A stretch of 53,688 nt of DNA from an uncultured Bacilli bacterium (GCA_934177545.1 CAKPPI010000002.1:1-53688), one strand, 5' to 3'; counted from the first letter of the stretch, positions 4,489 through 19,835 are shown. Notes: generated by a model not told the origin, from the letters alone. Numbers and translations are program-made.

Positions 4489-4790
4489 TATATAATGATT
4501 ATTCTTTAATTTTAATTGATACTTTTGAGCATTTTAAATATATAGTACTTTTATCTTATAAATATTTATATCCCATTAAATAAACTTTTATATCTAATAT
4601 CAATAGCTATCCTAAATAATAATAAGATAACTCTATGAGATCAGTAAGAAATAGTATCAAATTAAAATTCTAGAACTAATTTTTTATATAAATTAATTAT
4701 TAACACAATTATATATAAGTTAATTACTCTTTTCAATATATTTTCTCCTTGTAATTTTTTTGTACTTTCAAGTATATAGATACTAACTAT

Positions 4791-4819
4791 AAAAGAAAAA
4801 GGCCTTTCTATAGCCTTTC
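4791..4819 (-). terminator. Candidate terminator closing the 8780-4821 operon
   Basis: Minus-strand RNA reads AAAGGC-UAUAGAAAG-GCCUUU followed by UUCUUUU, directly after the stop at 4821. The stem is short and partly uses the U tract. Confidence 0.55.
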
Positions 4820-4820
4820 A

Positions 4821-5366
4821 TTAATTATCTTGAAGTATTATTTGTCCATCCATAATTGGTATATTTGGATAGCTTTCATCCATTAATGTGAAATTTCTAA
4901 GTGGAGCTTGAGGATTTGTTATTTCTACAGTTTGGTTTTCTACAGTCATAGTAATTGATTTAACACCATCATCAAATGTATGTCCTCCATCTCCTGCTAT
5001 TTGTTTGTAATATATTGGATTACTTCCAGTTGCAGCGAAAGGAACATTATTAAATACGGCATTACCATCCTGATTAGTAACAGCTTCTGTTCCAACTACT
5101 GTCCCTGTACTATCAGTTCTTATAAATCTTGCACCAACAATATCAACACCAGTAACAGGATCACCTGTATCAGTAACATGAAGAGTTAAAGTCCCTGTAG
5201 CACTTATAGTAAAAGCATATGTATTGGTACCTTCTACCACATTTACACTATTTGGAGTAAGAGTTGAAGAATCATATCCTCCAACTACTGCTGTAGCATT
5301 ATAAGTTCCATTAACTAACTCAATACTTCCTTTACCATTTGTTATGTTTATTGTCTGTCTTGCCAT
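4821..5366 (-). CDS. Small leaderless beta-rich protein (prealbumin/CarboxypepD_reg-like segment) with a shared C-terminal YPNI tag
   Basis: 181 aa, rich in Thr/Gly/Val/Asn, with no signal peptide or TM segment. The segment TGDPVTGVDIVGARFIRTDSTGTVVGTEAVTNQDGNAVFNNVPF resembles Cna-B/carboxypeptidase-regulatory-like beta-sandwiches. The C-terminal FTLMDESYPNIPIMDGQIILQD is shared with the upstream ORF. Confidence 0.7.
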   Translation of the reverse strand: MARQTINITNGKGSIELVNGTYNATAVVGGYDSSTLTPNSVNVVEGTNTYAFTISATGTLTLHVTDTGDPVTGVDIVGARFIRTDSTGTVVGTEAVTNQDGNAVFNNVPFAATGSNPIYYKQIAGDGGHTFDDGVKSITMTVENQTVEITNPQAPLRNFTLMDESYPNIPIMDGQIILQDN

Positions 5367-5689
5367 AATGTCATTTTACCTCCTTCTATTTTTATATTAG
5401 GATAATTCTTATCCATTAGTAAAACTGTAATGAGTTTACCATTGCTTTTATTATTAATATTTATATGATAGACTCTATTCTTTTTAGCAATTAAAGATAC
5501 TTTGATAACTGTTAAATTAGAATATATTATTAGGTTATAAAGTTCATTGTTACATATTGGTATTTTAATTCTTCCTAAATTATCAGTTTTACCTTCAAAA
5601 ACTACCTTATTACATTTATCCTTTAATTTAACATTTAATTTTACTTCTTTATCATTATAAAGTTTAATATAAATATAATCATTTTTCAT
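5348..5689 (-). CDS. Small leaderless beta-rich protein with a shared C-terminal YPNI tag
   Basis: 113 aa with no signal peptide. FEGKTDNLGRIKIPI is a prealbumin-like strand-turn motif. The C-terminus LLMDKNYPNIKIEGGKMTLWQD parallels the C-terminus of 4821..5366. The two genes overlap by 19 nt. Confidence 0.65.
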   Translation of the reverse strand: MKNDYIYIKLYNDKEVKLNVKLKDKCNKVVFEGKTDNLGRIKIPICNNELYNLIIYSNLTVIKVSLIAKKNRVYHININNKSNGKLITVLLMDKNYPNIKIEGGKMTLWQDRQ

Positions 5690-5743
5690 ATTTCACCTCA
5701 TTACACAATATTTTATAAATCAATTTAATATTTGGAAAAAGCA

Positions 5744-7621
5744 TTACTCCTCTACACTCCAAATTATTAATGTAGAATAATCCTCATCTTCTAATAAATC
5801 TTTACTCGGTTTAAGTAATAATCCTTTATCCGTAGAAAAAGTAACATTACTTACACTTATATTTCCACCATTATCACTTGATTCATATATTAGTTTCTTA
5901 TTAGTCTTTAAAATAATTTCCTCATTATCAAATTTTTTAAAAACTAATGAATCTATTAATACTTTTCCCTCTTTTTCTATCATTGGATTTGTATAATTTA
6001 AATATAGTTTCCACTTACTACTATTTATTCTACTATCAACTACTGTTACTATTGTTTGATTCTTTTTAGGTAAAATAAGTGGTTTAATAGATGACGGATT
6101 CATACTAAAAGGAATATTCTCTGTTACTCTTAAAAGGGTTAATTCTCCACTAAATGGTACTGTCACTTTTCTTTCGGTATAACAACTATTTAAACAAGAT
6201 ATTATTTTAATTCTTGTATTATCAGGAATAGTAGTATCAAGATCAGCTTCAAATAAACCATTTTCATCAGCAGTTGCTAGTAAGTTTTTACTATCATATT
6301 CTATTTTTACATTAGCATATGGTGTGGTATGACCTGATATGGTATTGGTAGAATTGAGGACTGGATGTACATTAGTTTTTAATTGTCCTAAAGTTAATAT
6401 CTTTATACCTTGAAATTTAAAACTAGTTATATCTGATATTGAGCTTAATTCACTATCAGTAAAATTGTGAGATGTAACTGTAGTAGTATCTTTACTAAAA
6501 GAGCCAGTTATTTCAGCAGGAGTATTTTCTTTATACCAGAAAAATGCAGGTTGATCATCTAGTGTACAAGCACTTGTATAATCTAGAGCATAAATCCACA
6601 TATTAATCCTTGAAAATTTAAAGGAAAAATCAACAGAATTATTGGCATATACTACATTGGCATTTTTAGTATAGATATTCACATATTTAGGATTATCTAA
6701 TATAAATTTTTGGTTTGTACCTTTAAAATAGATATTATAATTATCAGTTGGAGTAGTCATATAAGTATTTAGTACTGATATACTAGCTCCTTCTAAAACT
6801 TTAAAATCACCAAATACATTCCACATTGGGACTCGTTGATGGCTCTTTTCTATAAAAGTAAAATTAGCCATTTGTTCAATTATGACATTCCTAGCTCCAT
6901 GTGTTGTTGTAATAGCAAAACCATTTCCAGTAGTTAAAAGGAATTCTGCTCCATGTCCTACTATTAAATCAAGTCGATTAGTACCATTCATTAATTCTTT
7001 ATTAGTTGTGATATTTACATTACTATTAGGTACTATTTTAATATAAGATGGTATTACATCATTAAAGAAGAATACTGTGTTGGTAGTGGAATTACTTGTA
7101 ATTGTTGTATTTCCACCTATTATTATTCTATTAGAATCACATACTTTTTGAGCAGTTACACCATTTGTATCACTGACAGTTATAATAGAATCAATAATCT
7201 TTGTTGAACCATAGTAATTATTAGATAGTTCTATACCATTAAAATTAATATTATTATACTCAACAGTTAAGTTAGAATAATTAGGATGAGATGGCACATA
7301 AACTACGCTATAGGTATGGGAACTAACTATATTCATATTTTTAAGTATAATTCTTTTATTCGTAGTACTAACCGTTATAACATCTGTGCTATCAGTTAAA
7401 TTATTTGTATAGGTTGCTTTTATATTATTATATGTACCATCAATAGTTACTTTTGTTTTATTAGCATTTATTTTAAATCCACTCGTTAAAGTTATATCAT
7501 TACCTAAATATATATAATTATAATCATTTGTATTACTTAGTACATCTTTTAATTCTTCACTATTAGTTACTACCACTGTATTGTTATTAATTATTTCCAT
7601 ATTATCACTTTCCTTTACCAT
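5744..7621 (-). CDS. Leaderless beta-helix (pectate-lyase-like adhesive domain) / Ig-like / WxL-like domain protein
   Basis: 625 aa.
- N-terminus VVVTNSEELKDVLSNTNDYNYIYLGNDITLTSGFKINANKTKVTIDG plus long Asn/Thr/Ile-rich repeats, typical of right-handed beta-helix adhesive domains.
- aa ~425-480, GHTTPYANVKIEYDSKNLLATADENGLFEADLDTTIPDNTRIKI, looks like a bacterial Ig domain.
- The C-terminal ~140 aa carry two W-x-(L/V) motifs (SSKWKLYLNY and TLIIWSVEE) in WxL-domain spacing.
- There is no signal peptide, and only 46 nt separate it from the upstream stop. Confidence 0.7.
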   Translation of the reverse strand: MVKESDNMEIINNNTVVVTNSEELKDVLSNTNDYNYIYLGNDITLTSGFKINANKTKVTIDGTYNNIKATYTNNLTDSTDVITVSTTNKRIILKNMNIVSSHTYSVVYVPSHPNYSNLTVEYNNINFNGIELSNNYYGSTKIIDSIITVSDTNGVTAQKVCDSNRIIIGGNTTITSNSTTNTVFFFNDVIPSYIKIVPNSNVNITTNKELMNGTNRLDLIVGHGAEFLLTTGNGFAITTTHGARNVIIEQMANFTFIEKSHQRVPMWNVFGDFKVLEGASISVLNTYMTTPTDNYNIYFKGTNQKFILDNPKYVNIYTKNANVVYANNSVDFSFKFSRINMWIYALDYTSACTLDDQPAFFWYKENTPAEITGSFSKDTTTVTSHNFTDSELSSISDITSFKFQGIKILTLGQLKTNVHPVLNSTNTISGHTTPYANVKIEYDSKNLLATADENGLFEADLDTTIPDNTRIKIISCLNSCYTERKVTVPFSGELTLLRVTENIPFSMNPSSIKPLILPKKNQTIVTVVDSRINSSKWKLYLNYTNPMIEKEGKVLIDSLVFKKFDNEEIILKTNKKLIYESSDNGGNISVSNVTFSTDKGLLLKPSKDLLEDEDYSTLIIWSVEE

Positions 7622-7667
7622 AAATTATGCTAGAAAAATATTTTGAAATAATCAATTTTCATTACTT

Positions 7668-8780
7668 TTAATGTATTTTTACAACACTTAATATCGCATT
7701 AGTACTTCCATTAAATGTTATGTTAACTGCCATAGATGGTTTTACATTTAATGTTATCAAATCATCTTTACTTAGTGCTACAATGGTAGATGAACTTATA
7801 GAATTAATTATTTGTGCTTGAAATTCACTAGTAATATTTGTTGCTGGTTGTAATATATCATTAGCTCTTACTGACATAGTTAAAGAACATTCTTCATTGG
7901 TAGCACCACATAATGAATAAGATATGAGATAAACTCCATTTTCTTTTATTTTAATTGAATTATCATCTGGATATTCGGTAAGAAAAGCTGCTCCTTTTTC
8001 AGGCAAAGGAATAATATTATCTGTTCCTTGAAGTAAAGCAAGTGGAGTAGTAGACATTGAATATCTAATCCCATAAGAAGATACAAATTCTGTTCCTGGT
8101 GGTCCGGCTGGTCCTTGTGGACCTCTTTCTCCAGTAGCACCTTTCTCTCCTTTTGGAATTAAAAATGCTAAATGATGTACCCAGTTTTCAAAGGTATCCA
8201 TAACTTGAGCTGGTTCACCTGGTTCTAAAGTTTCTGTCTCATCAATAGCTATATGTTCTGTTCTTCCTATTTCTCCTGGTAATCCCCTTGGTCCCATATC
8301 TCCTTGGTCGCCTTTCTCTCCTTTTGGTATTTTAAAATCTAAAACTACATCAACAGGTGTACCAGTATTTACAACTTCAGCATCTTCCGTTGAATCAACT
8401 GTTTCAACAGTTCCAATTTGAATAGTGGCTGGTCCTTGATCTCCTTTTTCACCTTTTATTCCTTGAGGTCCAATATCTCCTTTATCTCCTTTAGGTCCGG
8501 GAATTCCTTGGGGTCCTATTTTTCCCTCTATCCCTTGCTCCCCTTTTGGTATTCTAAATCTTAAAACTACATCTTCATTTGTACCGATATTTTCTACTTT
8601 AGCTTCTTGATGTGACTCTACTGTTTCTGTAATACCTACTTCTATAGTAGTAGGTCCTTGTACTCCTCTATCTCCAGTATCTCCCTTTTCTCCTTTAGGT
8701 CCTGTTGGTCCTTGAATATAACAATTTCTATATTTATCTATTCTTTTTTTTAACTTCTCAAAATTATCATTATTATACAT
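7668..8780 (-). CDS. Collagen-like triple-helix repeat protein with a possible C1q/BclA-like C-terminal globular domain
   Basis: 370 aa. Four Gly-X-Y tracts lie at aa 24-43, 80-117, 154-172 and 211-229. Three ~36-aa beta modules interrupt them (TIEVGITETVESHQEAKVENIGTNEDVVLRFRIPKG and variants). A ~140-aa beta-rich C-terminal head follows (aa 230-370). No signal peptide. Confidence 0.85.
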   Translation of the reverse strand: MYNNDNFEKLKKRIDKYRNCYIQGPTGPKGEKGDTGDRGVQGPTTIEVGITETVESHQEAKVENIGTNEDVVLRFRIPKGEQGIEGKIGPQGIPGPKGDKGDIGPQGIKGEKGDQGPATIQIGTVETVDSTEDAEVVNTGTPVDVVLDFKIPKGEKGDQGDMGPRGLPGEIGRTEHIAIDETETLEPGEPAQVMDTFENWVHHLAFLIPKGEKGATGERGPQGPAGPPGTEFVSSYGIRYSMSTTPLALLQGTDNIIPLPEKGAAFLTEYPDDNSIKIKENGVYLISYSLCGATNEECSLTMSVRANDILQPATNITSEFQAQIINSISSSTIVALSKDDLITLNVKPSMAVNITFNGSTNAILSVVKIH

Positions 8781-8830
8781 AACAACCTCCTATTAGTATA
8801 ATATACAAAAATAATAATAATTCTACTATT

Positions 8831-8858
8831 AAAGAAAAAAACTATTCCTTTGAATAGT
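8831..8858 (-). terminator. Rho-independent terminator after the 8871..9701 membrane protein gene
   Basis: Minus-strand RNA reads ACUAUUC-AAAG-GAAUAGU followed by UUUUUUCUUU. The 7-bp stem arms are at 8852..8858 and 8841..8847. Confidence 0.8.
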
Positions 8859-8870
8859 CTATTATAAATA

Positions 8871-9701
8871 TCATTTTGATAAAACTTCTGCTACAGATTT
8901 TGCCATTTTTCTTTTACCTTTTGTTGGAACAAAATTATTTATAAATAAATTATTTTCATTATGTTTCAAACCAAAATAAGCAAAGAAACTAAATACTAAA
9001 GCACCAACAAAGTTAACAAATAAATCTTTCATAGTATCGTTTATACCTATATCTAAATAACCGTTATCTATTGTTTGGATTATATTTCCCTTAGTATCAT
9101 AAACAACTGTTTTTCCAATATTATCAATTATGACTGGCTTATTTTTACCATCAGGATTTAATGCTACTGATGATATTTCTTGTACAATCGTATCTTTTTG
9201 CATATCGAGTTTTAATATTTTATCGCTTCCATATTCAAAAAATTCCCATAATACTCCTATTGTCATAGAAAAACAAAAAGCTACTAAGCACAAATAAAAT
9301 GGTGATAAATTAATATGTGTACTATTATTGTTTAATAAATTTACTAAGGAAAAACCAACAGCTGTTGCTAAAAATCCATTAATTGTATGTAGCATTGTAT
9401 CCCAATAAGGAATTATTCCATAGAAATTATTAATTTCACCTAATATTTCAGCAGAAAATATAAATAAGTATATAGCTATTTCTAATCCATCTGGCAAAGT
9501 TATTTCAAATTTATTTTGAATAAATAATGGTGCAAATAATAATATTAATGATAATAAACATAATAAAGCATTATTTAAATCTCCTCTTATAAGTTGAAGA
9601 ACCATACATAATATAACTAAAAATCTCAATATTAAATATATAGCTAGAGAACTTCTTTTATTTTCTTTATAAGACATTTTGATTAATTTTTGAACTTTCA
9701 T
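8871..9701 (-). CDS. Polytopic membrane protein of unknown function
   Basis: 276 aa with about six hydrophobic helices and one ~70-aa hydrophilic loop (QKDTIVQEISSVALNPDGKNKPVIIDNIGKTVVYDTKGN...). I cannot assign a family with confidence. Confidence 0.65.
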   Translation of the reverse strand: MKVQKLIKMSYKENKRSSLAIYLILRFLVILCMVLQLIRGDLNNALLCLLSLILLFAPLFIQNKFEITLPDGLEIAIYLFIFSAEILGEINNFYGIIPYWDTMLHTINGFLATAVGFSLVNLLNNNSTHINLSPFYLCLVAFCFSMTIGVLWEFFEYGSDKILKLDMQKDTIVQEISSVALNPDGKNKPVIIDNIGKTVVYDTKGNIIQTIDNGYLDIGINDTMKDLFVNFVGALVFSFFAYFGLKHNENNLFINNFVPTKGKRKMAKSVAEVLSK

Positions 9702-9716
9702 TTTTCTCTTTCTCCT

Positions 9717-10121
9717 TTAGTTTTGAAACTTAATTTGTTCTCCTGTATTTAATGCAAATGCAATATCCGGATGAGCATAAGTTCCAATACTATATCTCCC
9801 ACCTTTTGAAATTATTCCTATTGCTTTAGTCCTTTTTATCCATTGTGTTGGTGACATTGCAAACGAATTTTTACCATACTCAGTTTTAATTTGGTCGAAT
9901 TCGATCAAATTAAAATTCTGATTATGAATTTCTTCCCATAGGCCAATATAATCAATATTATTTATTTTTCTTAACCAATTTTTAACTGTAAAAGATGGCT
10001 CATTTGAGTTTTGATACTTCACTGAATCAATTAAAGAAATATAATTAACATTTCCAGCTCTTAGTATTCCCACTTTATTTTCTTTAACTATTATTTCTGC
10101 AGTTACTAAATCTTTTTTCAA
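9717..10121 (-). CDS. KilA-N domain protein, apparently C-terminally truncated (mobile-element remnant)
   Basis: 134 aa. NYISLIDSVKY...NWLRKINNIDYIGLWEEIHNQNFNLIEFDQIKTEYGKNSFAMSPTQWIKRTKAIGIISKGGRYSIGTYAHPDIAF follows the KilA-N DNA-binding domain pattern. It stops right after the AHxDIAF motif, whereas full-length relatives continue for more than 100 aa. Confidence 0.65.
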   Translation of the reverse strand: MKKDLVTAEIIVKENKVGILRAGNVNYISLIDSVKYQNSNEPSFTVKNWLRKINNIDYIGLWEEIHNQNFNLIEFDQIKTEYGKNSFAMSPTQWIKRTKAIGIISKGGRYSIGTYAHPDIAFALNTGEQIKFQN

Positions 10122-10429
10122 TCTTTTTTCTCATTCCTACTTAGATTTTAAAAGATATTAACAAATATAATTATTGTTCACACCTTTATTTTACTACATA
10201 ATTTTAATTTTTGTGAACAAGTTTTGAAATAAACACAAGTCAAAGCACAATGTTAATATCATTTTAAATAATTTTTTTAGTTGTAATAACTCCATTATTA
10301 TCTTCTATAAGTTGTAAAGTTTATTTTTCTTTATTCATAAGTATTATTTTCTTTAAATTTTATAATTCTATCTTCAAAAGAAAAATGTTATCATATTTTC
10401 TGTGATAGCATTCCTTATTTTATGCAGAC

Positions 10430-10479
10430 TTGCGAGCTTATTTACCACAACAATTTTTATATTTTTTTCCTGAGCCACA
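10430..10479 (-). repeat. Degenerate copy C of the secA 3' end (SEC-C codons, stop and the first 8 nt of the terminator)
   Basis: The minus strand encodes ..LCGSGKKYKNCCGK-stop with no start codon. By hand alignment, 42 of 50 positions are identical to 14318..14367. Weaker similarity extends to about 10413. Confidence 0.8.
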
Positions 10480-10603
10480 CAGATGCGATGTTTTGCAATT
10501 CTGAGATCTTAGATACTATTCTAATCACTTTAAAACACGTTATTTTATGTTAATTCACATTAAATCGTTTTTGGCAAAACTCTACTAAAATGTAGATAAA
10601 AAT

Positions 10604-12370
10604 TTATTTTAGTTTTCCATAATACATGTCACTAAAGATTCCTTCTTTTTCAATCAATTCATCATATTTTCCACTTTCTTCAATCTTACCTTTATTCAAT
10701 ACAATTATTCTGTCGCAATTCTTTAAAGTAGTTAATCTATGAGCAATTGCTATTATAGTAGTATTGTTTTCTTTTTGTAATTTTTCTATTTCACTTTGAA
10801 TATGTTTTTCTGATGTGTTATCAAGAGCACTTGTTGCTTCATCTAATATTAATATTTTAGGCTTTCTTAAGAATATTCTTGCAATTGCAATTCTTTGTCT
10901 TTGTCCTCCTGAAAGATTATTTCCACCTTCAGATATTAATGTATCGAATTTTTCTGGTAGTTCTTCTATATAATCAAGTATATAAGCTTTTTTAGCAGCT
11001 TCTTCTACTTCTTCTATTGATACTTCTCTATTAATTCCATAAGTAATATTTTCATAAATTGTTCCAGCAATTAAAAATGGATTTTGAGGAACTAAGGCAA
11101 TTATATTAGAAATATCTTTTCTATTTAAGTTATCAATATTTGTATCATCCAAAATGATAGTACCATCTGCTTTTTCTAATTTACAAATTGATTTAATTAA
11201 TGATGATTTACCGCATCCTGAAGGACCAGCTATTCCTAAATACATTCCTTTTTCTATATCAATATTGAAGTCTTTTAGAATTAACTTATCTTTATCTTCC
11301 GAATAGTGAAAACTTAAATTTTTTATATTTATAATTTCATCAGTTACTTCATTATTTAATTCTCTTTTCGTATCCAAATATGAAAAATCATTTGGTATTT
11401 CAACCATTTCAAAGAAATCACTTGCTAGTATTGTACATTCTGATACTTCATCAAATATTCTGTGTAATTCTTCTAATGGTTTTGTTAATTGATTAAAACA
11501 TAAATAAGCTGTTAATACAGCACCTACTGATATTATACCTTTAGTTGCTAAATAAGTAGATATTCCTATTATTAATACAGTGAACACCGCCTGATTTATA
11601 AATTTTAAACAATCATATAACGCCATCGCTTTATGATGCTTCATTTCTTTATTTCTTAAAAATTCAGATTTAGTATCAAATCTATTTGTTTCAAAGTCAA
11701 CACTATCACAAATTCTAATAACTTCTATTCCATTAATAAGTTCAACTATTGTTCCATCCATACTTGATTTTCTTTCTAACAATTCTACTCTTATACCTCT
11801 TTGACTATTTATTTGAGCTAAAACAATAGTAACACCTATAGGAATAACCATTAACATAGGTAAAGCAAGTGTAATTGGCAAAGTTAAGAAAATTGTTATA
11901 ATAGCAGCCACACTATTAAAAATAGCTGGAGCAAAATCCATAAATAATAATTTTTCTAATTTTATAGTACCATCTAAGCATCTATTCATTCTTCCATGAA
12001 TATTACCTATCATATTCTTTCTAAAATATGATAATGGGGCCATTAATAGTGATTTTATAACCATTCCACGAGCTTTTTTTTCTGTTCTTGTTGCAACATC
12101 TTCTACCATTACTCTTCTTATAATCTTGATTATTTCATTACCTACATTAACTACAAGAATCAAAATAAGAAAAGGAACAACTTTTTCAAACGTAACACCA
12201 TTTACATTTAAAACATCATCTGTTAACCATCCAATTGCTTTTGGAGTCATCTGAGTTAAAACAGCTGATACAATCATTATTAATATAATAATTAAAAATT
12301 TTATTTTTTGCTTAAAATCTAACAATCTATATATTTTTCCTAATACCTTCTTCAAATTATTTCTTTTCAT
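10604..12370 (-). CDS. ABC exporter, fused permease and ATP-binding half-transporter (MsbA/MdlB type)
   Basis: N-terminal six-helix TMD, then an NBD with Walker A GPSGCGKSS, signature LSGGQRQRIAIAR and Walker B ILILDEATSALD. I place the start at the ATG preceded by GAGGTG (MKRNNLKK...). The track ORF extends 15 codons further, to 12415. Confidence 0.9.
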   Translation of the reverse strand: MKRNNLKKVLGKIYRLLDFKQKIKFLIIILIMIVSAVLTQMTPKAIGWLTDDVLNVNGVTFEKVVPFLILILVVNVGNEIIKIIRRVMVEDVATRTEKKARGMVIKSLLMAPLSYFRKNMIGNIHGRMNRCLDGTIKLEKLLFMDFAPAIFNSVAAIITIFLTLPITLALPMLMVIPIGVTIVLAQINSQRGIRVELLERKSSMDGTIVELINGIEVIRICDSVDFETNRFDTKSEFLRNKEMKHHKAMALYDCLKFINQAVFTVLIIGISTYLATKGIISVGAVLTAYLCFNQLTKPLEELHRIFDEVSECTILASDFFEMVEIPNDFSYLDTKRELNNEVTDEIINIKNLSFHYSEDKDKLILKDFNIDIEKGMYLGIAGPSGCGKSSLIKSICKLEKADGTIILDDTNIDNLNRKDISNIIALVPQNPFLIAGTIYENITYGINREVSIEEVEEAAKKAYILDYIEELPEKFDTLISEGGNNLSGGQRQRIAIARIFLRKPKILILDEATSALDNTSEKHIQSEIEKLQKENNTTIIAIAHRLTTLKNCDRIIVLNKGKIEESGKYDELIEKEGIFSDMYYGKLK

Positions 12371-12542
12371 AAATACACCTCTATTACAACTATAACACAT
12401 TTTTACCAACACCACTTTCGAAGTGAACGATTCTTGTTTTTCCCTTTTGTTATAAGAATTTTAACGTATTCTTGAAAAGTTGTTAAATGTAGATAATGTG
12501 TAGATAGTGCTGTAGTCTTTACAATTTATACCATTTTTTCAA

Positions 12543-12588
12543 GCAAAGAAAAATCTCGCAAACTCTTTATTTATAAGGTTTTGCAAGC
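12543..12588 (-). terminator. Terminator copy belonging to secA-3' repeat B
   Basis: Minus-strand RNA after the remnant stop reads CUUGCAAAAC-loop-GUUUGCGAG followed by AUUUUUCUUUGCUU. It is homologous to the secA terminator at 14286..14325. Confidence 0.6.
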
Positions 12589-12633
12589 TTATTTGCCACA
12601 ACTTTGTTTGTATTTCTTACCACTTCCACATGG
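12554..12633 (-). repeat. Degenerate copy B of the secA 3' end (SEC-C codons, stop and terminator hairpin)
   Basis: The minus strand encodes ..LPCGSGKKYKQSCGK-stop with no start codon (an in-frame TAA lies 12 codons upstream of the first Cys codon). By ungapped hand alignment, 68 of 80 positions are identical to 14291..14370, including 35 nt of non-coding terminator sequence. Confidence 0.85.
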
Positions 12634-12764
12634 TAAAATATTAAAACAGCCAAGTAATTTTTCCTTTTAAACTGGTATTTTTTATTTTAATTTAATAATT
12701 TTTTATTGAAATATTGCAAGTTTTTATTCAACAACTTATCTAATAACTTATCTAAAAAATATAT

Positions 12765-13349
12765 TTATATCTTATGACTATGACTGTTTATTAATTTAAA
12801 GTATTCAACAACTTGATCAGCAACTTCTTCTGGTTCTAAATTAGTATTATTTATTTTCAAATGATTTGGACAAATTAATTCTCCATCATTAGAATTTAAT
12901 CTATACTTTTCCATTGTATCAAGTAAATCTCTTTGACTTCTTTCAACATCATTTTTTGTAAATTTTGATGCTAATCTGTGAGGAGTTACATTTCTTTCTA
13001 ATCTTGTTTTCACATCTGCTTCTAATTCAACAAAATAAAATTGCCCACCTGTTGCTTCAAACATATTTCTTAAATTATTTAAATACTCTATATCTTCTGG
13101 TGAATCAAAGGCTGTTACAAAAGTAAAAATCATATCTATATCATATTGTATTGTAGTATCAAATGCACCTTTTCTAATTATTTTGTTCAATTCTTTTTGT
13201 GCAGGTGTGCCCATACCAAATATTTTATCTGAAACTTCAATGCTATCGTGGTTAACCATTAGAGAATATCCTAATCGTTCTCTAATTTTTTCTGCTATTG
13301 TCATTTTACCAACAGCTTGTGGGCCAGACACCACTATTAAATTTGCCAT
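12765..13349 (-). CDS. P-loop NTPase / small-molecule-kinase-like protein
   Basis: 194 aa. The N-terminus LIVVSGPQAVGKMT is a Walker-A-like loop, atypical in having Met where Ser/Thr is usual. Size and layout resemble shikimate/adenylate-kinase-fold AAA proteins. Confidence 0.6.
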   Translation of the reverse strand: MANLIVVSGPQAVGKMTIAEKIRERLGYSLMVNHDSIEVSDKIFGMGTPAQKELNKIIRKGAFDTTIQYDIDMIFTFVTAFDSPEDIEYLNNLRNMFEATGGQFYFVELEADVKTRLERNVTPHRLASKFTKNDVERSQRDLLDTMEKYRLNSNDGELICPNHLKINNTNLEPEEVADQVVEYFKLINSHSHKI

Positions 13350-13353
13350 TTTA

Positions 13354-14169
13354 TCACTCCTTTATATACCCTAAATATTTTAATTTTTCTATATCTTCAT
13401 CATGATATTCTACTTTTGATTCTAAATTCCATATTGCATTAGGAGAATATTTTTCAGAATACTCTAATACTTTTGCAATATCAATTGTTCCATGGCATAT
13501 TCCTAAATGTTCGTCATCATTATGATCAGAAATATTTTGTTTTCCATGATTATTATGTAAATGATAATACGCTATTCTATCACCCAATTTCTCAATCCAT
13601 TTTTCAACTGGCATAACTGAATTAGCATGTGCATGTCCAATATCTAAACATACTTTTAGTCTGTCATCGGCTACACCATCAATTATTTGTATTAACATGT
13701 CACTATCTAATTCAAATTGATTTTCTATACAAATAGTTACTCTACTATCTTTGTCTTTTAAGAACTCTTTCCAAAAATTTATAGATCTCTCAATATACTT
13801 TGGATAATAATAAGTACCAACCTTATAACCATTATGAATAACTATTTCTGTGCAGCCAAGTTTTGAAGCAACTTGATATGCAGTATTTAAATACTTCATT
13901 ATTTTTTCATAATCATAGTAATCTTTTGTTCCTGTTTCAACACCAGCATGTGGGGCATGTAAACTCTTACCACAATTCATATTATCTAAAACTGATTTTT
14001 CTTTCAATAATTCTGTTTCTATTCTAGAATATACTTCTTCATCTGATTCCCCAATTTTTCTTGTTATTGAATCAGCAAAAGCTTGAACTTCAATTCCTAA
14101 TCCATTTTTATTACATCTTCCAACAGTTTCTTCAAATGAAGAATCGTCACATAATCTTATCTCTCTCAC
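13354..14169 (-). CDS. Xylose-isomerase-like TIM-barrel protein (sugar phosphate isomerase/epimerase family)
   Basis: It has metal-ligand-type motifs LHAPH, IVIHNG, ICIENQ, CLDIGHAH and HLHNNHG in the usual AP-endonuclease-2/xylose-isomerase-like order. The start is placed at the GTG preceded by AAGGAAGTGA. The track ORF extends to 14229. Confidence 0.75.
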   Translation of the reverse strand: MREIRLCDDSSFEETVGRCNKNGLGIEVQAFADSITRKIGESDEEVYSRIETELLKEKSVLDNMNCGKSLHAPHAGVETGTKDYYDYEKIMKYLNTAYQVASKLGCTEIVIHNGYKVGTYYYPKYIERSINFWKEFLKDKDSRVTICIENQFELDSDMLIQIIDGVADDRLKVCLDIGHAHANSVMPVEKWIEKLGDRIAYYHLHNNHGKQNISDHNDDEHLGICHGTIDIAKVLEYSEKYSPNAIWNLESKVEYHDEDIEKLKYLGYIKE

Positions 14170-14285
14170 AATAATCACTTCCTTTTTTATTATATAATAT
14201 ACACCTTGTTTTAAGGCTGATTTCACCAAAAAAACTTATCTAAACGCCTTTTTTGAAGTAAAATTACCTAAAAATTGTAAGTAGT

Positions 14286-14325
14286 AAAAAGCTTGCAAGC
14301 CCGTTATTTATAAGGCTTTGCGAGC
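14286..14325 (-). terminator. secA rho-independent terminator
   Basis: Minus-strand RNA directly after TAA reads GCUCGCAAAGCC-UUAUAAAUAAC-GGGCUUGCAAGC followed by UUUUUAC. The stem has one mismatch and one bulge. Confidence 0.7.
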
Positions 14326-14370
14326 TTATTTACCACAACATTGCTTATATTTTTTACCACTTCCACATGG
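14291..14370 (-). repeat. Master copy A of the repeat: the genuine secA 3' end plus its terminator
   Basis: It encodes the SecA C-terminus CPCGSGKKYKQCCGK-stop and the terminator hairpin. It is the template for the similarity to 12554..12633 and 10430..10479. Confidence 0.85.
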
Positions 14371-16812
14371 ACAAGGATCATTACGACCTACTTTTTTACT
14401 CTTCTTTGGTTTCTTTACTGAATCTGATTTATCATCATTAGTTTGAACATTTCTTGTAACTGGTTTTCTTTCAACAGTTTTTTGTATTTCTGCTTTTAGT
14501 AAGAATATAGTAACATCATGATCAATCTTTTGTAACATTTGATCAAATAAATCAAATCCTTCAGTACTATATGCTCTTAATGGATCTTCTTGACCATAAC
14601 TACGTAAATAAATACCTTCACGCAAGTGACTCATTACATTAATTTGTTCCATCCAGTAATTATCAATGACTTGTAAAGATAATGCTTTTTCAAATTCACT
14701 AGTTATTTCTACTGGAACATCACTAAGTTTTTCTTCATATTCTTCTTTTGCTTTATTATATAAGAAGTCTATCATATCATCATCTAATAATGAACTAATA
14801 TCATTTTCAGTAATATCTTTATCTAGTAAATTTTCATTAGCAAAAGATACTATTTCTTTCTTATCTTGTTCACTTAAAATACCATCTATAGTATGTGACT
14901 TAACTAAGTCAGTAACATAATTTCTCATACATTCAAGAACTTGTTCATGAACAGATTCACTATCTAGAATTTCATTTCTTCTACCATACATGATTTCACG
15001 TTGAGTATTCATTACATCATCATATTGTAATAATTGTTTTCTAGCATCAAAGTTATTTCCTTCAACTCTTTTTTGAGCAGTTGTAATAGCTTTAGAAAAG
15101 TATTTATTTTGAATAGCTTGATCACCAAATCCAAAACTAGTCATCATTTCTTTAATTTTTTCACTACCAAAGCGAACCATTAAATCATCTTCCATAGATA
15201 CAAAGAACTGTGTAAATCCAGGATCTCCTTGACGACCAGAACGTCCTCTTAACTGATTATCAATACGACGAGATTCATGACGTTCAGTACCAATAACACA
15301 TAATCCACCAAGTGCTCTTATCTCATCTGATAATTTAATATCAGTACCACGACCAGCCATATTAGTAGCGATAGTGACTGATTTATGTTGACCAATTTTA
15401 GAAATAATTTCAGCTTCTCTTGCATGATTCTTAGCATTTAATATTTCATGTGGAATCTTTTCTTTCTTTAATAAAGCACTTATTAATTCACTAGTTTCAA
15501 TAGCAATAGTACCAATTAATACTGGTTGACCCTTAGTATATCTTTCTTTTACTTCATTAATAATAGCTTTATACTTAGCATTTTTAGTAGCAAATACTAA
15601 GTCAGAAGCATCAATTCTTTCAACTGGTTTATTAGTTGGGATGCAAATAACATACATATTATAAATATCACGGAATTCTTCTTCTTCTGTTTTAGCAGTA
15701 CCAGTCATACCAGATAACTTTTTATACATTCTAAATAAGTTTTGGAAAGTAATAGTTGCTAAAGTTTTAGTTTCTTGATTAATACGAACTCCTTCTTTAG
15801 CTTCAATTGCTTGATGAAGTCCATCACTATAAGCACGTCCTTTCATCAAGCGTCCAGTAAATTGGTCTACTATAACAACTTCTCCATCTTGAACAACATA
15901 ATCTACATCTAATTTCATAGAATAGTTTGCTCTTAAAGCTTGATTAATATAATGTACTAAAGTTGCATTTTCTACTTCATAAAGATTCTTAACTCGAAAA
16001 GCTTTTTCTGCTTTTTCACTACCTTCATCAGTTAATGTTACACTCTTAGTAGTTTCATCGTATAGATAATCTACATCATCTTTTAATCCTTTAACAAAAC
16101 TATCAGCATCTTGATAAAGGTTTGCACTAACTAATTGTCCTCCAGAAATAATTAATGGAGTTCTTGCTTCATCTATTAATACTGAATCCACTTCATCAAC
16201 GATAGCAAAGTTTAATGGTCTTTGTACTCTATCTTCTTTTCTAATAACCATATTGTCTCTTAGATAATCAAATCCAATTTCATTATTTGTAGAATATAAA
16301 ATATCACAAGCATAAGCTTCTTGTTTTTCTTTAGGACTTAATTCTCTTGTATTAACTCCTACTGTTAAACCTAAAAATCTATGAATTCCACCCATCCATT
16401 CAGCATCACGAGTAGCTAGATATTCATTAACAGTAATGATATGTACTCCTTTTCCATCTAAAGCATTTAAGTAAGCTGGTAAAACGGATGTTAGTGTTTT
16501 TCCTTCACCAGTTTTCATTTCTGCTATATTACCATAGTGTATTGCTAAAGCACCTAGTATCTGAACATAGAAAGGTTTTTCTCCTATAACACGATAAGCT
16601 GCTTCTCTTGCAGTAGCAAAAGCTTCTACTAAAATATCTTCTAGTGTTTCTCCATTTTCTAAACGTTTCTTAAATTCCTCTGTTTTATTCTTTAACTCTT
16701 CATCCGATAACTTTTGATAGTCTTCATCTAAGGCTACTATTTTATCTGCTAAAGATTCAAATTTTTTTAATTCTTTATATTCATGATCAAATAATCTTGT
16801 AAATAATCCCAT
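14326..16812 (-). CDS. secA: Preprotein translocase ATPase SecA
   Basis: 828 aa. It has Walker A MKTGEGKT, the DEAD-like box DEVDSVLIDEARTPLIISG, the preprotein cross-linking and helical scaffold regions, and a C-terminal zinc-binding SEC-C motif CPCGSGKKYKQCCGK. Confidence 0.97.
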   Translation of the reverse strand: MGLFTRLFDHEYKELKKFESLADKIVALDEDYQKLSDEELKNKTEEFKKRLENGETLEDILVEAFATAREAAYRVIGEKPFYVQILGALAIHYGNIAEMKTGEGKTLTSVLPAYLNALDGKGVHIITVNEYLATRDAEWMGGIHRFLGLTVGVNTRELSPKEKQEAYACDILYSTNNEIGFDYLRDNMVIRKEDRVQRPLNFAIVDEVDSVLIDEARTPLIISGGQLVSANLYQDADSFVKGLKDDVDYLYDETTKSVTLTDEGSEKAEKAFRVKNLYEVENATLVHYINQALRANYSMKLDVDYVVQDGEVVIVDQFTGRLMKGRAYSDGLHQAIEAKEGVRINQETKTLATITFQNLFRMYKKLSGMTGTAKTEEEEFRDIYNMYVICIPTNKPVERIDASDLVFATKNAKYKAIINEVKERYTKGQPVLIGTIAIETSELISALLKKEKIPHEILNAKNHAREAEIISKIGQHKSVTIATNMAGRGTDIKLSDEIRALGGLCVIGTERHESRRIDNQLRGRSGRQGDPGFTQFFVSMEDDLMVRFGSEKIKEMMTSFGFGDQAIQNKYFSKAITTAQKRVEGNNFDARKQLLQYDDVMNTQREIMYGRRNEILDSESVHEQVLECMRNYVTDLVKSHTIDGILSEQDKKEIVSFANENLLDKDITENDISSLLDDDMIDFLYNKAKEEYEEKLSDVPVEITSEFEKALSLQVIDNYWMEQINVMSHLREGIYLRSYGQEDPLRAYSTEGFDLFDQMLQKIDHDVTIFLLKAEIQKTVERKPVTRNVQTNDDKSDSVKKPKKSKKVGRNDPCPCGSGKKYKQCCGK

Positions 16813-16889: not shown

Positions 16890-19184
16890 CTAGATAGAAA
16901 CACAACTTTCACCATGATACCAAGCATCAACTATAACAGGTGTTACAATATCATCAATAACTTTATCCACTTGTCTTGCTCCAAACTTTTCATAGTTAGC
17001 TTTAGAAATTATTTTTTCCACAATATCTGTGGATATTTCTACTTCTATATTCTTTTTCTTAAAAGCATTTATTAACAGGTCTAATTTTAGATTTACTATT
17101 CTTTCAATATCTTCTTTAGTTAAATCTTTGAAATAGTATTTCTTATCTATACGGTTAACAAATTCTACACCTAAAAATTCTTCTATATCTGTATTCTTAC
17201 TATCTACTGTTTCCACAAATCCTATATCTTTTTTATTCGCTCCTAAATTAGTTGTCATAAAGAGAAAAATGTGTTCAAAAGACACTTTTCGTCCTTTAGA
17301 GTCCTTTAAATAACCTTCATCCATTACTTGAAGAAATAGTTTTAATACAGAAGGTGATGCTTTTTCTATCTCATCTAATAGTATTACACAATGAGGGTAT
17401 AGTCTTATTTGATCAAGTATAGTCTCATGATTATCAAAGCCCACATATCCTGGAGGAGCTCCAAGTATTTTACTTACTGAATGTTCTTCTTTATACTCAC
17501 TCATATCTAATCTAATAAAGTGATCTTTTCCATAAAGAAGAGAAGCATATTCTTTTACTAAATAGGTTTTACCTATTCCTGTACTACCAGCTAAAAGAAA
17601 GGTATGTATCTTAGGACTATCTTGAAAACCTAATTGTATTTTTTTAGTTAAATTACATAAATCATGGATTATCTCATCTTGACCTATAATTTTACTTAAT
17701 AATTCTTTTTCTAGGGAAAATAGTTTTGTCTTATTACCTTCTATTATTTCGTATACAGGAATTTTAGTTTTTAAATAAATAACTTCTGCTATCATTTCTT
17801 TAGTTATTTTCCTAGGTTTCTTTTTACCAAGAAGAGAAAACTCAAGTTCATTTTTCTTAGTAATTAAATTTTTTTCACTTTGTTTTAGTTTAGATGCTTT
17901 TTTAAAGTTTTGACTTGTAACTGCTTCTTTTTTTTCTATTACAATTTTTTGCAGTGAATTATTTAATTTCTTTAGTTCTTTATCTTTTTTATCTTCTATA
18001 AGACTAGCTTTAGCACATACTTCATCTAATATATCTATCGCTTTATCTGGTTGATAATATTCATATATATAAGTATTTGATAAATCTACTATCATATCAA
18101 TCATTTCATCTGATATTGATACAGAGTGATAAGCTTCATATAATGGTTTTAATTTCTTTAATATTTCTTTAGTCTTTTCTTTATTAGGCTCTTCTATTAA
18201 TAGTATTTGAAATCTTCTATTTAAGGCTTTATCTTTCTCAATAAATTCTCTATATTCAGATACAGTAGTTGCTCCTATCAAATGTATTTTTCCTCTAGCA
18301 AGGGCTGGTTTTAAGATATTAGATGCATCTATTGCACCTTCTGCTCCACCTGCACCTACTAAAGTATGAATCTCATCTATAAAGATTAGGTACTCATCAT
18401 GTTCTTCTATTTCTTTAAGTATTTTACCTACTCTTTCTTCAAATTCTCCTCGATACTTAGTACCTGCTACTAAAGATGCCATCGAAAGAGATAATATCTC
18501 TTTACCTCTTAAGGCTCTTGGAACATTATTTTCTACTATTTGTCTTGCTAATTCTTCAACTATAGCTGTTTTTCCAACTCCTGCTTCTCCTAATAGTAGT
18601 GGATTATTCTTAGTTCTTCTACAAAGTATTTCTATCATTCTTTTTAGCTCTGTTTCTCTACCTATAACAGGATCTATTTCATTGGACATAATTCTTTTAT
18701 TTAGATTAACGGAAAACTCTTCAATCAGTAATTTCTTATGTCCTGTTATTTTCTTTTCTGTAAAAGAAGTAGAAAACTCTTGATATAGTCTATCTATATC
18801 TATATTCATACCCATTAATAGTCTAATAGCTATACCTTCTCCTTCTTCTAATAGTGATAAGAATAACTCTGTAACTGACACTTCACTTTCTTTATTTTCT
18901 TTACTATTTAACATTGCTGTTTCTAATACTCTTTTTAAAAGGGGGGTATATAAAAACCAGTCATTGGTTGTCTTTCCTATTCCTACTACTCTTATTAATT
19001 CATCTTTAAATTTATCATATGTTAAACCTAATAGTTTTAAATGATTAGTTACTTTTAACTCTTTCATTGATAGTATAGCTAATAGTAAATGTTCACTTCC
19101 TACATATGGATGTTTTAAAGTCCTCATTTCTTTTCTAGCTAATACTAAGGCTTTCTGAGCATCTTCACTAAATTTCGAAAACAT
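16890..19184 (-). CDS. clpC: Clp/Hsp100 family AAA+ chaperone, ClpC-like
   Basis: 764 aa. It has a double Clp_N repeat N-terminus (FSEDAQKAL.. and [10 protein letters not shown]..). The two AAA+ modules carry Walker [10 protein letters not shown] and GSTGIGKTY and Walker B IFIDEIH and ILLDEIEKA. No ctsR, mcsA or mcsB lies upstream. Confidence 0.9.
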
Positions 19185-19262
19185 TTTATTTCCTCCTTGT
19201 ATACTTATATTTTAACGAGAAGGAATATGGTTAAGCAATTATTTTAAGACCAAAAAAAGTGA

Positions 19263-19292
19263 CAAAAAAACTAGTTCTTAATGTGAACTAGT
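19263..19292 (-). terminator. Rho-independent terminator after 19293..19835
   Basis: Minus-strand RNA reads ACUAGUUC-ACAUUAA-GAACUAGU followed by UUUUUUUGUC. The perfect 8-bp stem starts immediately after the stop codon. Confidence 0.85.
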
Positions 19293-19835
19293 TTAATCAA
19301 CTTGCTCAGTAGCTTCTACTCTTATTCTACTGTAGAATGATTTTGCCATAACATCGTTTGTAGCATCTAAGTTTAACCATAAACGAAATTCAAAGCTTTG
19401 AGTAGTATTACCTGCTATTGAATAAGAACCTAATTTATTGCTACTAGTTGATAGTTTCCCATTTGATACTGATGTCCCATCTTTCTTTAAATCATATGAT
19501 AAGAAACTATGAGTAAATGTTGCACAATCAGTACAATCACTATCATCATCTAGATAAACATCATATGTTATAGTTCTAGTACCAGTATTTTTTAAGGTAA
19601 AGGTATAAGGTGTATTCTTAAGTCCATCACTATCTTCTTGAGGAGCTACTTTAGTAAGGGCAATAGTTGAGGTTCCTTCAGTATAATTTAGTTGAAGGTT
19701 TTTTGCTATTAAAGTTATGTTTTTATCTCCTCTTAAAGTCATTTTAGCTAGAGCAAAACTTATTCCTACAAAAATAACTATTAATATTAAAAGACTAATA
19801 ATTATAAGTTTCTTGTTACTATCAATTTTTTTCAT
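19293..19835 (-). CDS. Orphan TasA/CalY-like protein with a SipW-type signal peptide
   Basis: 180 aa. The N-terminus KKLIIISLLILIVIFVGISFALAKMTL resembles the signal region of the 37382-39486 paralogues. Motifs YTFTLKNTGTRTITYDVYL, FEFRLWLNLDA and the C-terminal FYSRIRVEATEQ parallel TasA ..IKLQFSFEATQ. Confidence 0.7.
   Translation of the reverse strand: MKKIDSNKKLIIISLLILIVIFVGISFALAKMTLRGDKNITLIAKNLQLNYTEGTSTIALTKVAPQEDSDGLKNTPYTFTLKNTGTRTITYDVYLDDDSDCTDCATFTHSFLSYDLKKDGTSVSNGKLSTSSNKLGSYSIAGNTTQSFEFRLWLNLDATNDVMAKSFYSRIRVEATEQVD

Follow-up and report, generated by a model that had tools for sequence, protein, structure and literature searches.

The DNA analyzed here, hereafter the window, is a stretch of 53,688 nucleotides (53.7 kb) from an uncultured gut Bacilli genome obtained from Hadza samples. 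It contains an intact secA gene, downstream of which lie two small gene cassettes, named E1 and E2, and what is left of a third element (Table 1). All genes in this array are on the minus strand, in the same direction as secA, and the gene content found with Pfam was as given in a preliminary description of this DNA, which had been made from the sequence alone. SecA itself matched SecA_DEAD, SecA_PP_bind, SecA_SW and SEC-C in Pfam. The 3' end of its gene, with the zinc-finger codons, recurs at the borders of the cassettes, and the way in which such an array may have been formed is the subject of this analysis.

A degenerate 42-nt pattern of the secA end (TGYGG...TAR) matched the window at exactly three places, all on the secA strand and designated copies A, B and C; shuffled controls gave on average 0.0 matches when as many as 8 mismatches were allowed and 0.05 when 9 were allowed. 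The same three sites were recovered with a 21-mer that spans the stop codon, against 0 expected. Together with scored local alignments, these searches confirmed that three secA 3' ends bracket the two cassettes, as initially proposed. Copies A and B were identical at 73 of 85 positions in an ungapped alignment extending ~38 nt beyond the stop codon through the hairpin and T-run, and the 68 of 80 positions counted previously by hand proved to be about right. Copies A and C agreed at ~48 of 57 positions with three 1-nt gaps, and their ungapped alignment beyond the stop covered only ~12 nt (GCTCGCAAG..). The claimed similarity past the stop codon was thus found for both copies, over a shorter distance for copy C.

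According to RNA folding, the hairpin following copy A reached -14.4 kcal/mol (z -3.1) and that following copy B was weaker (-9.6 kcal/mol, z -1.5); no hairpin was found downstream of copy C. Folding was used because these post-core hairpins were not called by a consensus terminator scan, probably because their loops of ~10 nt exceed the limit of 8 in that scan. No Rfam family matched positions 9500-14600. No open reading frame (ORF) of at least 50 aa spans copy B or copy C, in line with the earlier statement that neither has a start codon, and no further decayed core was detected in the stretch from copy C to prfB when up to 9 mismatches to the 42-nt pattern were allowed.

A progressive decay from A to B to C had been read as the order of insertion, and this part of the preliminary description did not stand. 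Since copy C is intact and relatives most often have its KYKN variant as their genuine secA ending, the differences between the three copies look like differences of allele or origin between elements rather than in-place erosion, and would record neither decay nor insertion order. The likeness of A and B beyond the stop is that of the related left ends of E1 and E2, and not a trace of the original DNA downstream of secA. Copy A would act as the left attachment (attL)-type core of E1 and copy C as the right attachment (attR)-type core of E2, while copy B would be a junction core, serving both as attR of E1 and as attL of E2.

Table 1. Features of the secA array in the window (positions counted from the first nucleotide of the window).
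Feature	Position	Strand	Description
secA	14326-16812	minus	828 aa, intact; ends ..CPCGSGKKYKQCCGK and stop; SEC-C zinc-finger motif at C-terminus
Core copy A	14326-14367	minus	42-nt pattern, 0 mismatches; last 13 secA codons and stop (TGTGGAAGTGGTAAAAAATATAAGCAATGTTGTGGTAAATAA)
E1 left end	14235-14325	minus	Hairpin and T-run (~14284-14327), family-specific spacer (CTACTTACAATTTTTAGGTAATT), one TTAGATAAG
E1 left-end arm-type repeat TTAGATAAG	14235-14243	minus	Single copy
E1 cargo	12765-14169	minus	TIM-barrel gene and P-loop gene
E1 TIM-barrel gene	13354-14169	minus	Xylose-isomerase-like, GTG start; Pfam AP_endonuc_2
E1 P-loop gene	12765-13349	minus	194-aa protein; Pfam; gene calls in L200
E1 right end	12631-12764	minus	Two direct TTAGATAAG repeats, then conserved ~100-nt arm ending ..TTTTAATATTTTACCATG
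E1 right-end repeats TTAGATAAG	12747-12755 and 12735-12743	minus	12 bp spacing; -128 and -116 from next core
Core copy B	12589-12630	minus	42-nt pattern, 1 mismatch; encodes ..CGSGKKYKQSCGK and stop; no gene upstream
E2 left end	12488-12588	minus	Weaker hairpin and T-run, then two direct TATCTACA repeats
E2 left-end repeats TATCTACA	12499-12506 and 12488-12495	minus	11 bp spacing
E2 cargo	10604-12370	minus	588-aa fused ABC exporter (transmembrane domain and ATPase); Pfam
E2 right end	10480-10603	minus	One TATCTACA (10591-10598) and conserved arm common to L017
Core copy C	10438-10479	minus	42-nt pattern, 0 mismatches; encodes intact ..CGSGKKYKNCCGK and stop
Third-element remnant	9717-10437	minus	244 nt absent from sister strain and truncated KilA-N gene
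Segment absent from sister strain L001	10194-10437	minus	244 nt
Truncated KilA-N gene	9717-10121	minus	Pfam

The genes of E1 and E2 are limited to the TIM-barrel, P-loop and ABC exporter genes. Neither an integrase nor phage structural, replication or lysogeny genes were found in the two cassettes with Pfam. In NCBIfam, the matches of the E1 proteins were all sub-threshold and every match of the ABC exporter fell under the curated cut-offs. Only a KilA-N remnant was seen beyond copy C. It appears to be what is left of a third element of the type found at locus L010, where a full KilA-N gene and an integrase fragment lie between two cores. The KilA-N ORF of the window has the appearance of a deletion fusion, with an N-terminus matching the 294-aa KilA-N protein of L010 and a last stretch of 11 residues matching the end of an ORF of 324 aa. 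This ORF, a putative choloylglycine-hydrolase, is present in the sister strain L001 (15276-16250) and missing from the window.

Strain replacement and a cassette in distant hosts

In ~360 related loci, extra cores were always located downstream of secA and on the secA strand. Two to four SEC-C cores were present in 17 of 80 related secA loci, extra cores were likewise present in another set of 80 loci, centered on a clostridial SecA of 915 aa, and a DNA scan seeded on a repeat motif added dozens of core arrays. Wherever it is visible in relatives, prfB lies 4.2-12.7 kb downstream of secA; in Bacillus subtilis, the two genes adjoin each other. The secA-prfB interval is a general hotspot of accessory DNA.

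Variation in the presence of cassettes, which had been suggested as a check on the insertion of elements, was seen in a sister strain (L001) of the same species with ~98% nucleotide identity to the window. L001 matches the window through secA to position 14259, then again from 10193 on. Between these flanks, it carries 2.3 kb of different DNA encoding a DUF4379 zinc-ribbon protein and a small ORF; the replacement begins with a left end of the same type and terminates in a decayed core. Decayed cores are present in both L001 and L017.

The array of the window was reproduced at 99.2-99.6% identity in other, independent assemblies (a 139-kb ENA contig, Logan and other ENA contigs), which rules out a one-off mis-assembly. 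For the P-loop protein of E1 (194 aa), 22 contigs with the exact sequence are on record, and an exact-sequence look-up of the E2 ABC exporter gave no record. In four independent assemblies, E1 also occupies the end of secA in an uncultured bacterium of another class, Clostridium sp. UMGS1689. This host has a 915-aa SecA that is only 40% identical to the SecA of the window, with the sporulation gene SpoIIP nearby. In three of the loci (L201, L205 and L207), E1 is 99.4% identical and directly follows secA, with a 234-nt internal deletion and a truncated right end. In the fourth (L202), it is 97.8% identical, stands behind another TTAGATA-armed cassette carrying a nucleotidyltransferase and has three left-arm repeats, compared with one in the window. 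The representative genome of the UMGS1689 species carries an integrase element at the same place instead of E1. Near-identity of the cassette beside an essential gene that is only 40% identical implies recent transfer, and arrival at the same site without flanking homology argues for site-specific insertion.

Cores of other shapes were also encountered. At L021, a 384-aa C-terminal SecA fragment (18480-19634) is duplicated 8.7 kb downstream of the genuine secA and constitutes a surrogate far longer than the usual 42-nt core, and the third core of L071 (14307) retains ~15 additional secA-like codons. In L017, a core at 14165-14190 ends prematurely, after ..GGTAAAAAATAT; next come a small zinc-ribbon membrane gene and a right end of the TATCTACA type. 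The shortened core may mark a crossover or deletion point. L192 and L103 have TTAGATAAG-type left ends without a recognizable SEC-C core upstream, that of L192 being located after the 3' end of another gene. These ends may be decayed arrays or indicate a second target site.

Tyrosine integrases, phages and arm-type repeats

Tyrosine integrases are encoded by related elements; in Pfam, they show Arm-DNA-binding, SAM-like and catalytic domains. The integrase gene lies directly downstream of the secA core in ~10 Bacilli and ~25 Clostridia loci, beginning ~230 nt past the secA stop. Paired repeats specific to each element precede these genes, e.g., TTTGTCCAC, ATGTGCACA or TTGTTTGCA, with a spacing of 11-12 bp. 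That description had also noted the lack of a visible integrase and had left the mechanism open: the first point holds for the window, and the second is largely resolved by the tyrosine integrases of relatives and phages.

Phages were searched for by scanning IMG/VR for paired TTAGATA[AC]G. Temperate-phage contigs were retrieved in which the secA core is followed by the hairpin, two copies of TTAGATAC, a tyrosine integrase of 373-405 aa encoded on the opposite strand, a cI/LexA-like repressor and early genes. Both attachment sites are present in two prophage contigs of 35 and 40 kb. In their attR, a TTAGATAC pair at -132 precedes TTCTGCTA.. and CCAAGT-type repeats, which are followed by the core; one class of cassette right ends is of this family. 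The phage attachment site (attP) is seen in L520 and L481, two other contigs, with arm repeats on both sides of the SEC-C core and the integrase alongside; upstream of this core, stop codons stand in place of secA. Since these attP sites contain a SEC-C core and no secA, the phages themselves bring the surrogate secA ending. The SecA fragments flanking phages point to Bacilli-type and Clostridia-type hosts, the clostridial flank being short. E1 shares its arm motif (TTAGATAAG) and end architecture with one phage family, but without the integrase. The enzyme type matching E1 would be the integrase of temperate phages with TTAGATA[AC]G arms beside a secA core.

The non-coding DNA adjoining the cores sorts into families. 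In left ends of the E1 type, the core is followed by the hairpin, a spacer (CTAYGATTACAATATTTAGGTAATT-like) and TTAGATA[AC]G repeats that begin +121 and +132 nt downstream of the Gly codon GGN, itself 3 nt into the 42-nt core. The left repeat of E1 in the window is at +121, as in 8 other loci, and at +120 in a ninth (L074). At right ends, the TTAGATA[AC]G pair is at -128/-116 before the next core, and these offsets recur across many loci. The E1 offsets match the layout of phage attL, attR and attP. TTAGATAAG occurs once at the left end of E1 and twice at its right end, and TATCTACA twice at the left end of E2 and once at its right end. The right-end arm of E1 is conserved in an alignment with the right ends of L071 and L079, and the flank of copy C, i.e., the right-end arm of E2, aligned with the flank of the second L017 core. 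The same layout as in E1 was found at the ends of a closed 4.5-kb element (L265) with an intact 426-aa integrase, where TTGTTTGCA occurs twice at both ends with 11 bp spacing. From this architecture, the paired repeats are best read as putative arm-type sites of an integrase.

Besides these repeats, an ATAAA(T/A)AAGGG(T/A)TTGCGAGG motif recurs 10-30 nt after the secA stop (L004, L021, L035, L045, L157 and others). It occurs in element families with different arm repeats and may be a functional part of the core, not just one half of a terminator.

The cassettes with TAGATA-type arms differ from the other elements in their lack of an integrase, which follows 29 of the 76 cores with other arm motifs vs. 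0 of the 58 cores with TAGATA-type arms. A stricter catalog comprised 84 TAGATA-type left ends and 46 closed cassettes of ~0.8-3.6 kb with 39 cargo clusters. None of the 46 carries an integrase, and a few cargos are common to different species-representative genomes. With element-type or phage-type queries, no integrase was found in the window or in the TAGATA cassettes, and the sole phage-type integrase fragment lies in L285, in no cassette. The cassettes have a common spacer motif that is absent from phage attL sequences. This family pattern fits non-autonomous elements that persist and spread as such, without being proof of it. As for the cargo of other closed elements, that at a clostridial secA end (L244, 12112-14058) encodes a 408-aa P-loop ATPase and a 229-aa protein, a gene pair resembling a two-gene anti-phage defense pair.

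Proposed insertion at the secA end and its alternatives

Taken together, it is highly probable that the secA end is a bacterial attachment site (attB) used by tyrosine integrases, and that E1 and E2 form a tandem array of integrase-less elements docked there. The last 13 secA codons (TGY GGN ... AAR TAR) would serve as attB for diverse tyrosine integrases carried, in uncultured gut Bacilli and Clostridia, by temperate phages and by small integrative elements. The attP of the element would hold its own copy of the core flanked by paired arm-type repeats. Recombination within the core would then leave secA intact and a second core at the far end of the element, and repeated insertion into any core would yield a head-to-tail array, which in the window would read secA, E1 (TTAGATAAG arms), E2 (TATCTACA arms) and a decayed KilA-N element. 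With both att-like ends kept and no recombinase, E1 and E2 could be moved only by an integrase acting in trans or by a neighboring element. The serial site-specific insertion with surrogate ends that was initially suggested is thus supported by the extra cores downstream of secA, the strain replacement, E1 in a distant host and the phage attP sites, and E1 and E2 are, or were, probably mobilized by tyrosine integrases of these kinds.

Several observations weigh against this proposal. No empty secA-prfB site, which was sought on the suggestion of the preliminary description, was found among 80 relatives, the shortest gap being 4.2 kb. No excision product was observed, and the evidence for excision that the strain replacement and the occurrence in different hosts provide is indirect. 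An integrase was found in 0 of 58 TAGATA-armed left ends and 0 of 31 closed elements, and tblastn gave no integrase homolog in the 53.7-kb window; a helper integrase in this genome is therefore hypothetical. For the TATCTACA arms of E2, no phage partner was found, and there was no secA core among at least 120 paired-TATCTACA viral loci. The position of the crossover could not be mapped, since comparisons of the cores of the window, L001, L201 and L202 conflict: one pair differs right after TGTGG, and another switches only after the hairpin. The L201/L202 junctions suggest that homologous recombination between similar left ends may also reshuffle arrays. Finally, the repeat counts in the window are not above chance, with 3 TTAGATAAG vs. 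2.3 expected and 6 TATCTACA vs. 4.7 expected; the significance of the repeats comes from their fixed positions across loci, not from these counts.

The TTAGATA-armed cassettes, including E1, could even be self-propagating minimal elements reduced to their att sites rather than decay products. Such elements would consist of a left end of ~250 nt, a right end of ~130 nt and 0.5-3 kb of arbitrary cargo, would parasitize the integrases of secA-targeting temperate phages, would stack at the SEC-C codons of secA as integron cassettes do at attI, and would move between gut Bacilli and Clostridia. This combined reading is tentative, and we would put its chances somewhat below even.

Alternatively, E1 and E2 could be inert fossils, i.e., prophages or elements reduced to their ends and a few accessory genes, without site-specific movement and spread only vertically or by homologous recombination between conserved ends. 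The absence of an integrase from the cassettes would be accounted for in this way, as would the single left-arm repeat of E1 in the window vs. three in the L202 copy, the internal deletion and truncated right end of L201, whose junction resembles recombination between similar left ends, and the decayed cores of L001 and L017. However, E1 is 97.8-99.4% identical at the same site despite 40% SecA identity and chromosomal flanks without homology, and identical cargo is found in different species-representative genomes. Moreover, the same ends are kept by all 46 closed cassettes with their 39 cargo clusters, no phage-integrase fragment lies inside any cassette (the only one being that of L285), and the spacer motif of the cassettes is missing from phage attL. 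Inert fossils thus appear unlikely, albeit still worth considering.

An integron-like platform, in which a dedicated chromosomal recombinase would capture promoterless cassettes at secA via folded attC-like sites, would explain why the cassettes are small and one-directional, with very diverse cargo and conserved ends. It is nevertheless very improbable, as no recombinase adjoins secA in the window, the ends are long (~130-250 nt), bear paired direct repeats of the kind typical for lambda-type arm sites and match phage attL and attR, and the associated integrases are far below the NCBIfam integron-integrase cut-off (44-53 bits vs. 265). The chance is slimmer still that the repeats arose from a local tandem duplication or from metagenome mis-assembly, with strains joined at a shared repeat. 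Indeed, the window comes from a metagenome-assembled genome and repeats can produce chimeric joins, but A, B and C have no long exact stretch in common (12 mismatches in 85 nt between A and B), the DNA between them is unrelated cargo and not duplicated sequence, and independent assemblies agree on the array. Lastly, although SEC-C motifs (Pfam PF02810) are found at the C-termini of many unrelated proteins and copy C aligns ungapped for only ~12 nt past the stop, there is hardly any likelihood that copies B and C are remnants of unrelated small SEC-C-motif genes with convergent zinc-finger coding, given the 38 nt of A/B identity past the stop, the lack of an ORF of at least 50 aa over B or C, the constant position and strand of the cores at hundreds of loci, the conserved non-coding ends beside them and the same core in phage attP.

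Known systems and neighboring genes

The proposed insertion at the secA end by tyrosine integrases resembles lambda-type phage integration, in which a surrogate of the gene end in attP preserves the gene, the core is flanked on either side by paired arm repeats and the integrase is encoded beside attL. In the window, direct core repeats bound the elements, secA is intact and arm repeats occur on both sides; the difference is that these elements have no phage genes, and that a tyrosine integrase of their own was not found in E1 or E2. The array is also reminiscent of the staphylococcal cassette chromosome (SCC) and pseudo-SCC, which form composite cassette arrays at the rlmH (orfX) 3' end, with repeats that contain that end. 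Many SCC-type cassettes have no recombinase of their own, and SCC recombinases are of the large serine type (Ccr), in contrast to the tyrosine integrases with arm sites considered here.

Cis-mobilizable elements (CIMEs) are defined by the retention of attL and attR and the absence of integration and transfer genes, and tandem accretion at a gene 3' end is described for ICESt1 and a CIME at fda of Streptococcus thermophilus (PMC5704250). E1 and E2 have this trait, as attL and attR are retained and integration and transfer genes were not found. They are further similar to CIMEs in their tandem arrangement at the 3' end of a housekeeping gene, the repetition of the gene end at each junction and a tyrosine integrase as the presumed recombinase. 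Here, however, the target is secA, the att arms match those of temperate phages rather than those found in ICEs (integrative and conjugative elements), and cassettes lacking an integrase constitute a large family of their own (46 closed cassettes, 39 cargo clusters) and do not look like occasional decay products. Regarding an origin by decay of ICEs or integrative and mobilizable elements, the att sites that the ends match are those of phages, and neither conjugation genes nor, inside the cassettes, integrase remnants were found. In the case of the Dehalococcoides ssrA islands, several islands reportedly stand head to tail behind a single-copy essential gene, each bounded by a direct repeat of the gene 3' end as in the array at secA; the target there is the transfer-messenger RNA gene (PMC3146451).

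With integron cassettes, the elements at secA have in common that they are small, diverse units of mostly one or two genes, in one orientation, at a fixed site and dependent on a foreign integrase. They differ by the lack of an adjacent IntI and of an attC-type folded site, by their phage-type attL and attR arms and by a docking site that lies inside a coding sequence. If the cassettes are mobilized in trans, they would be a phage-dependent counterpart of integron cassettes.

The secA end is a new target site, with a new element family of a known kind, namely tyrosine-integrase integration at a gene 3' end with CIME-like accretion; no report of secA as an attachment site was found in the literature searched, the coverage of which is incomplete and leaves this novelty unproven. 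As far as that literature shows, this is an undescribed hotspot at the zinc-finger codons of an essential and universally conserved gene, used by phages and small elements in two classes of human and animal gut bacteria about which little is known. The 42-nt core and the paired arm repeats provide a signature for finding accessory-gene cargo, delimiting prophages and linking phages to hosts in metagenome-assembled genomes. That nearly the same cassette occurs in hosts whose SecA is 40% identical directly demonstrates recent gene flow from one distant gut lineage to another by way of one conserved docking site.

A block at 4788-9746, located between the array and prfB and 97.9% identical in L001, encodes a DUF2238 membrane protein, a BclA-like collagen-repeat protein, a 625-aa Ig-domain protein and small ORFs; it may be a surface-layer cluster or old mobile DNA. 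The prfB gene itself (927-1610, upstream to ~2000) appears to be split over two frames: in the listed ORF, the RF-1 and PCRF domains do not begin until mid-protein, which is what the programmed +1 frameshift of release factor 2 would lead one to expect.

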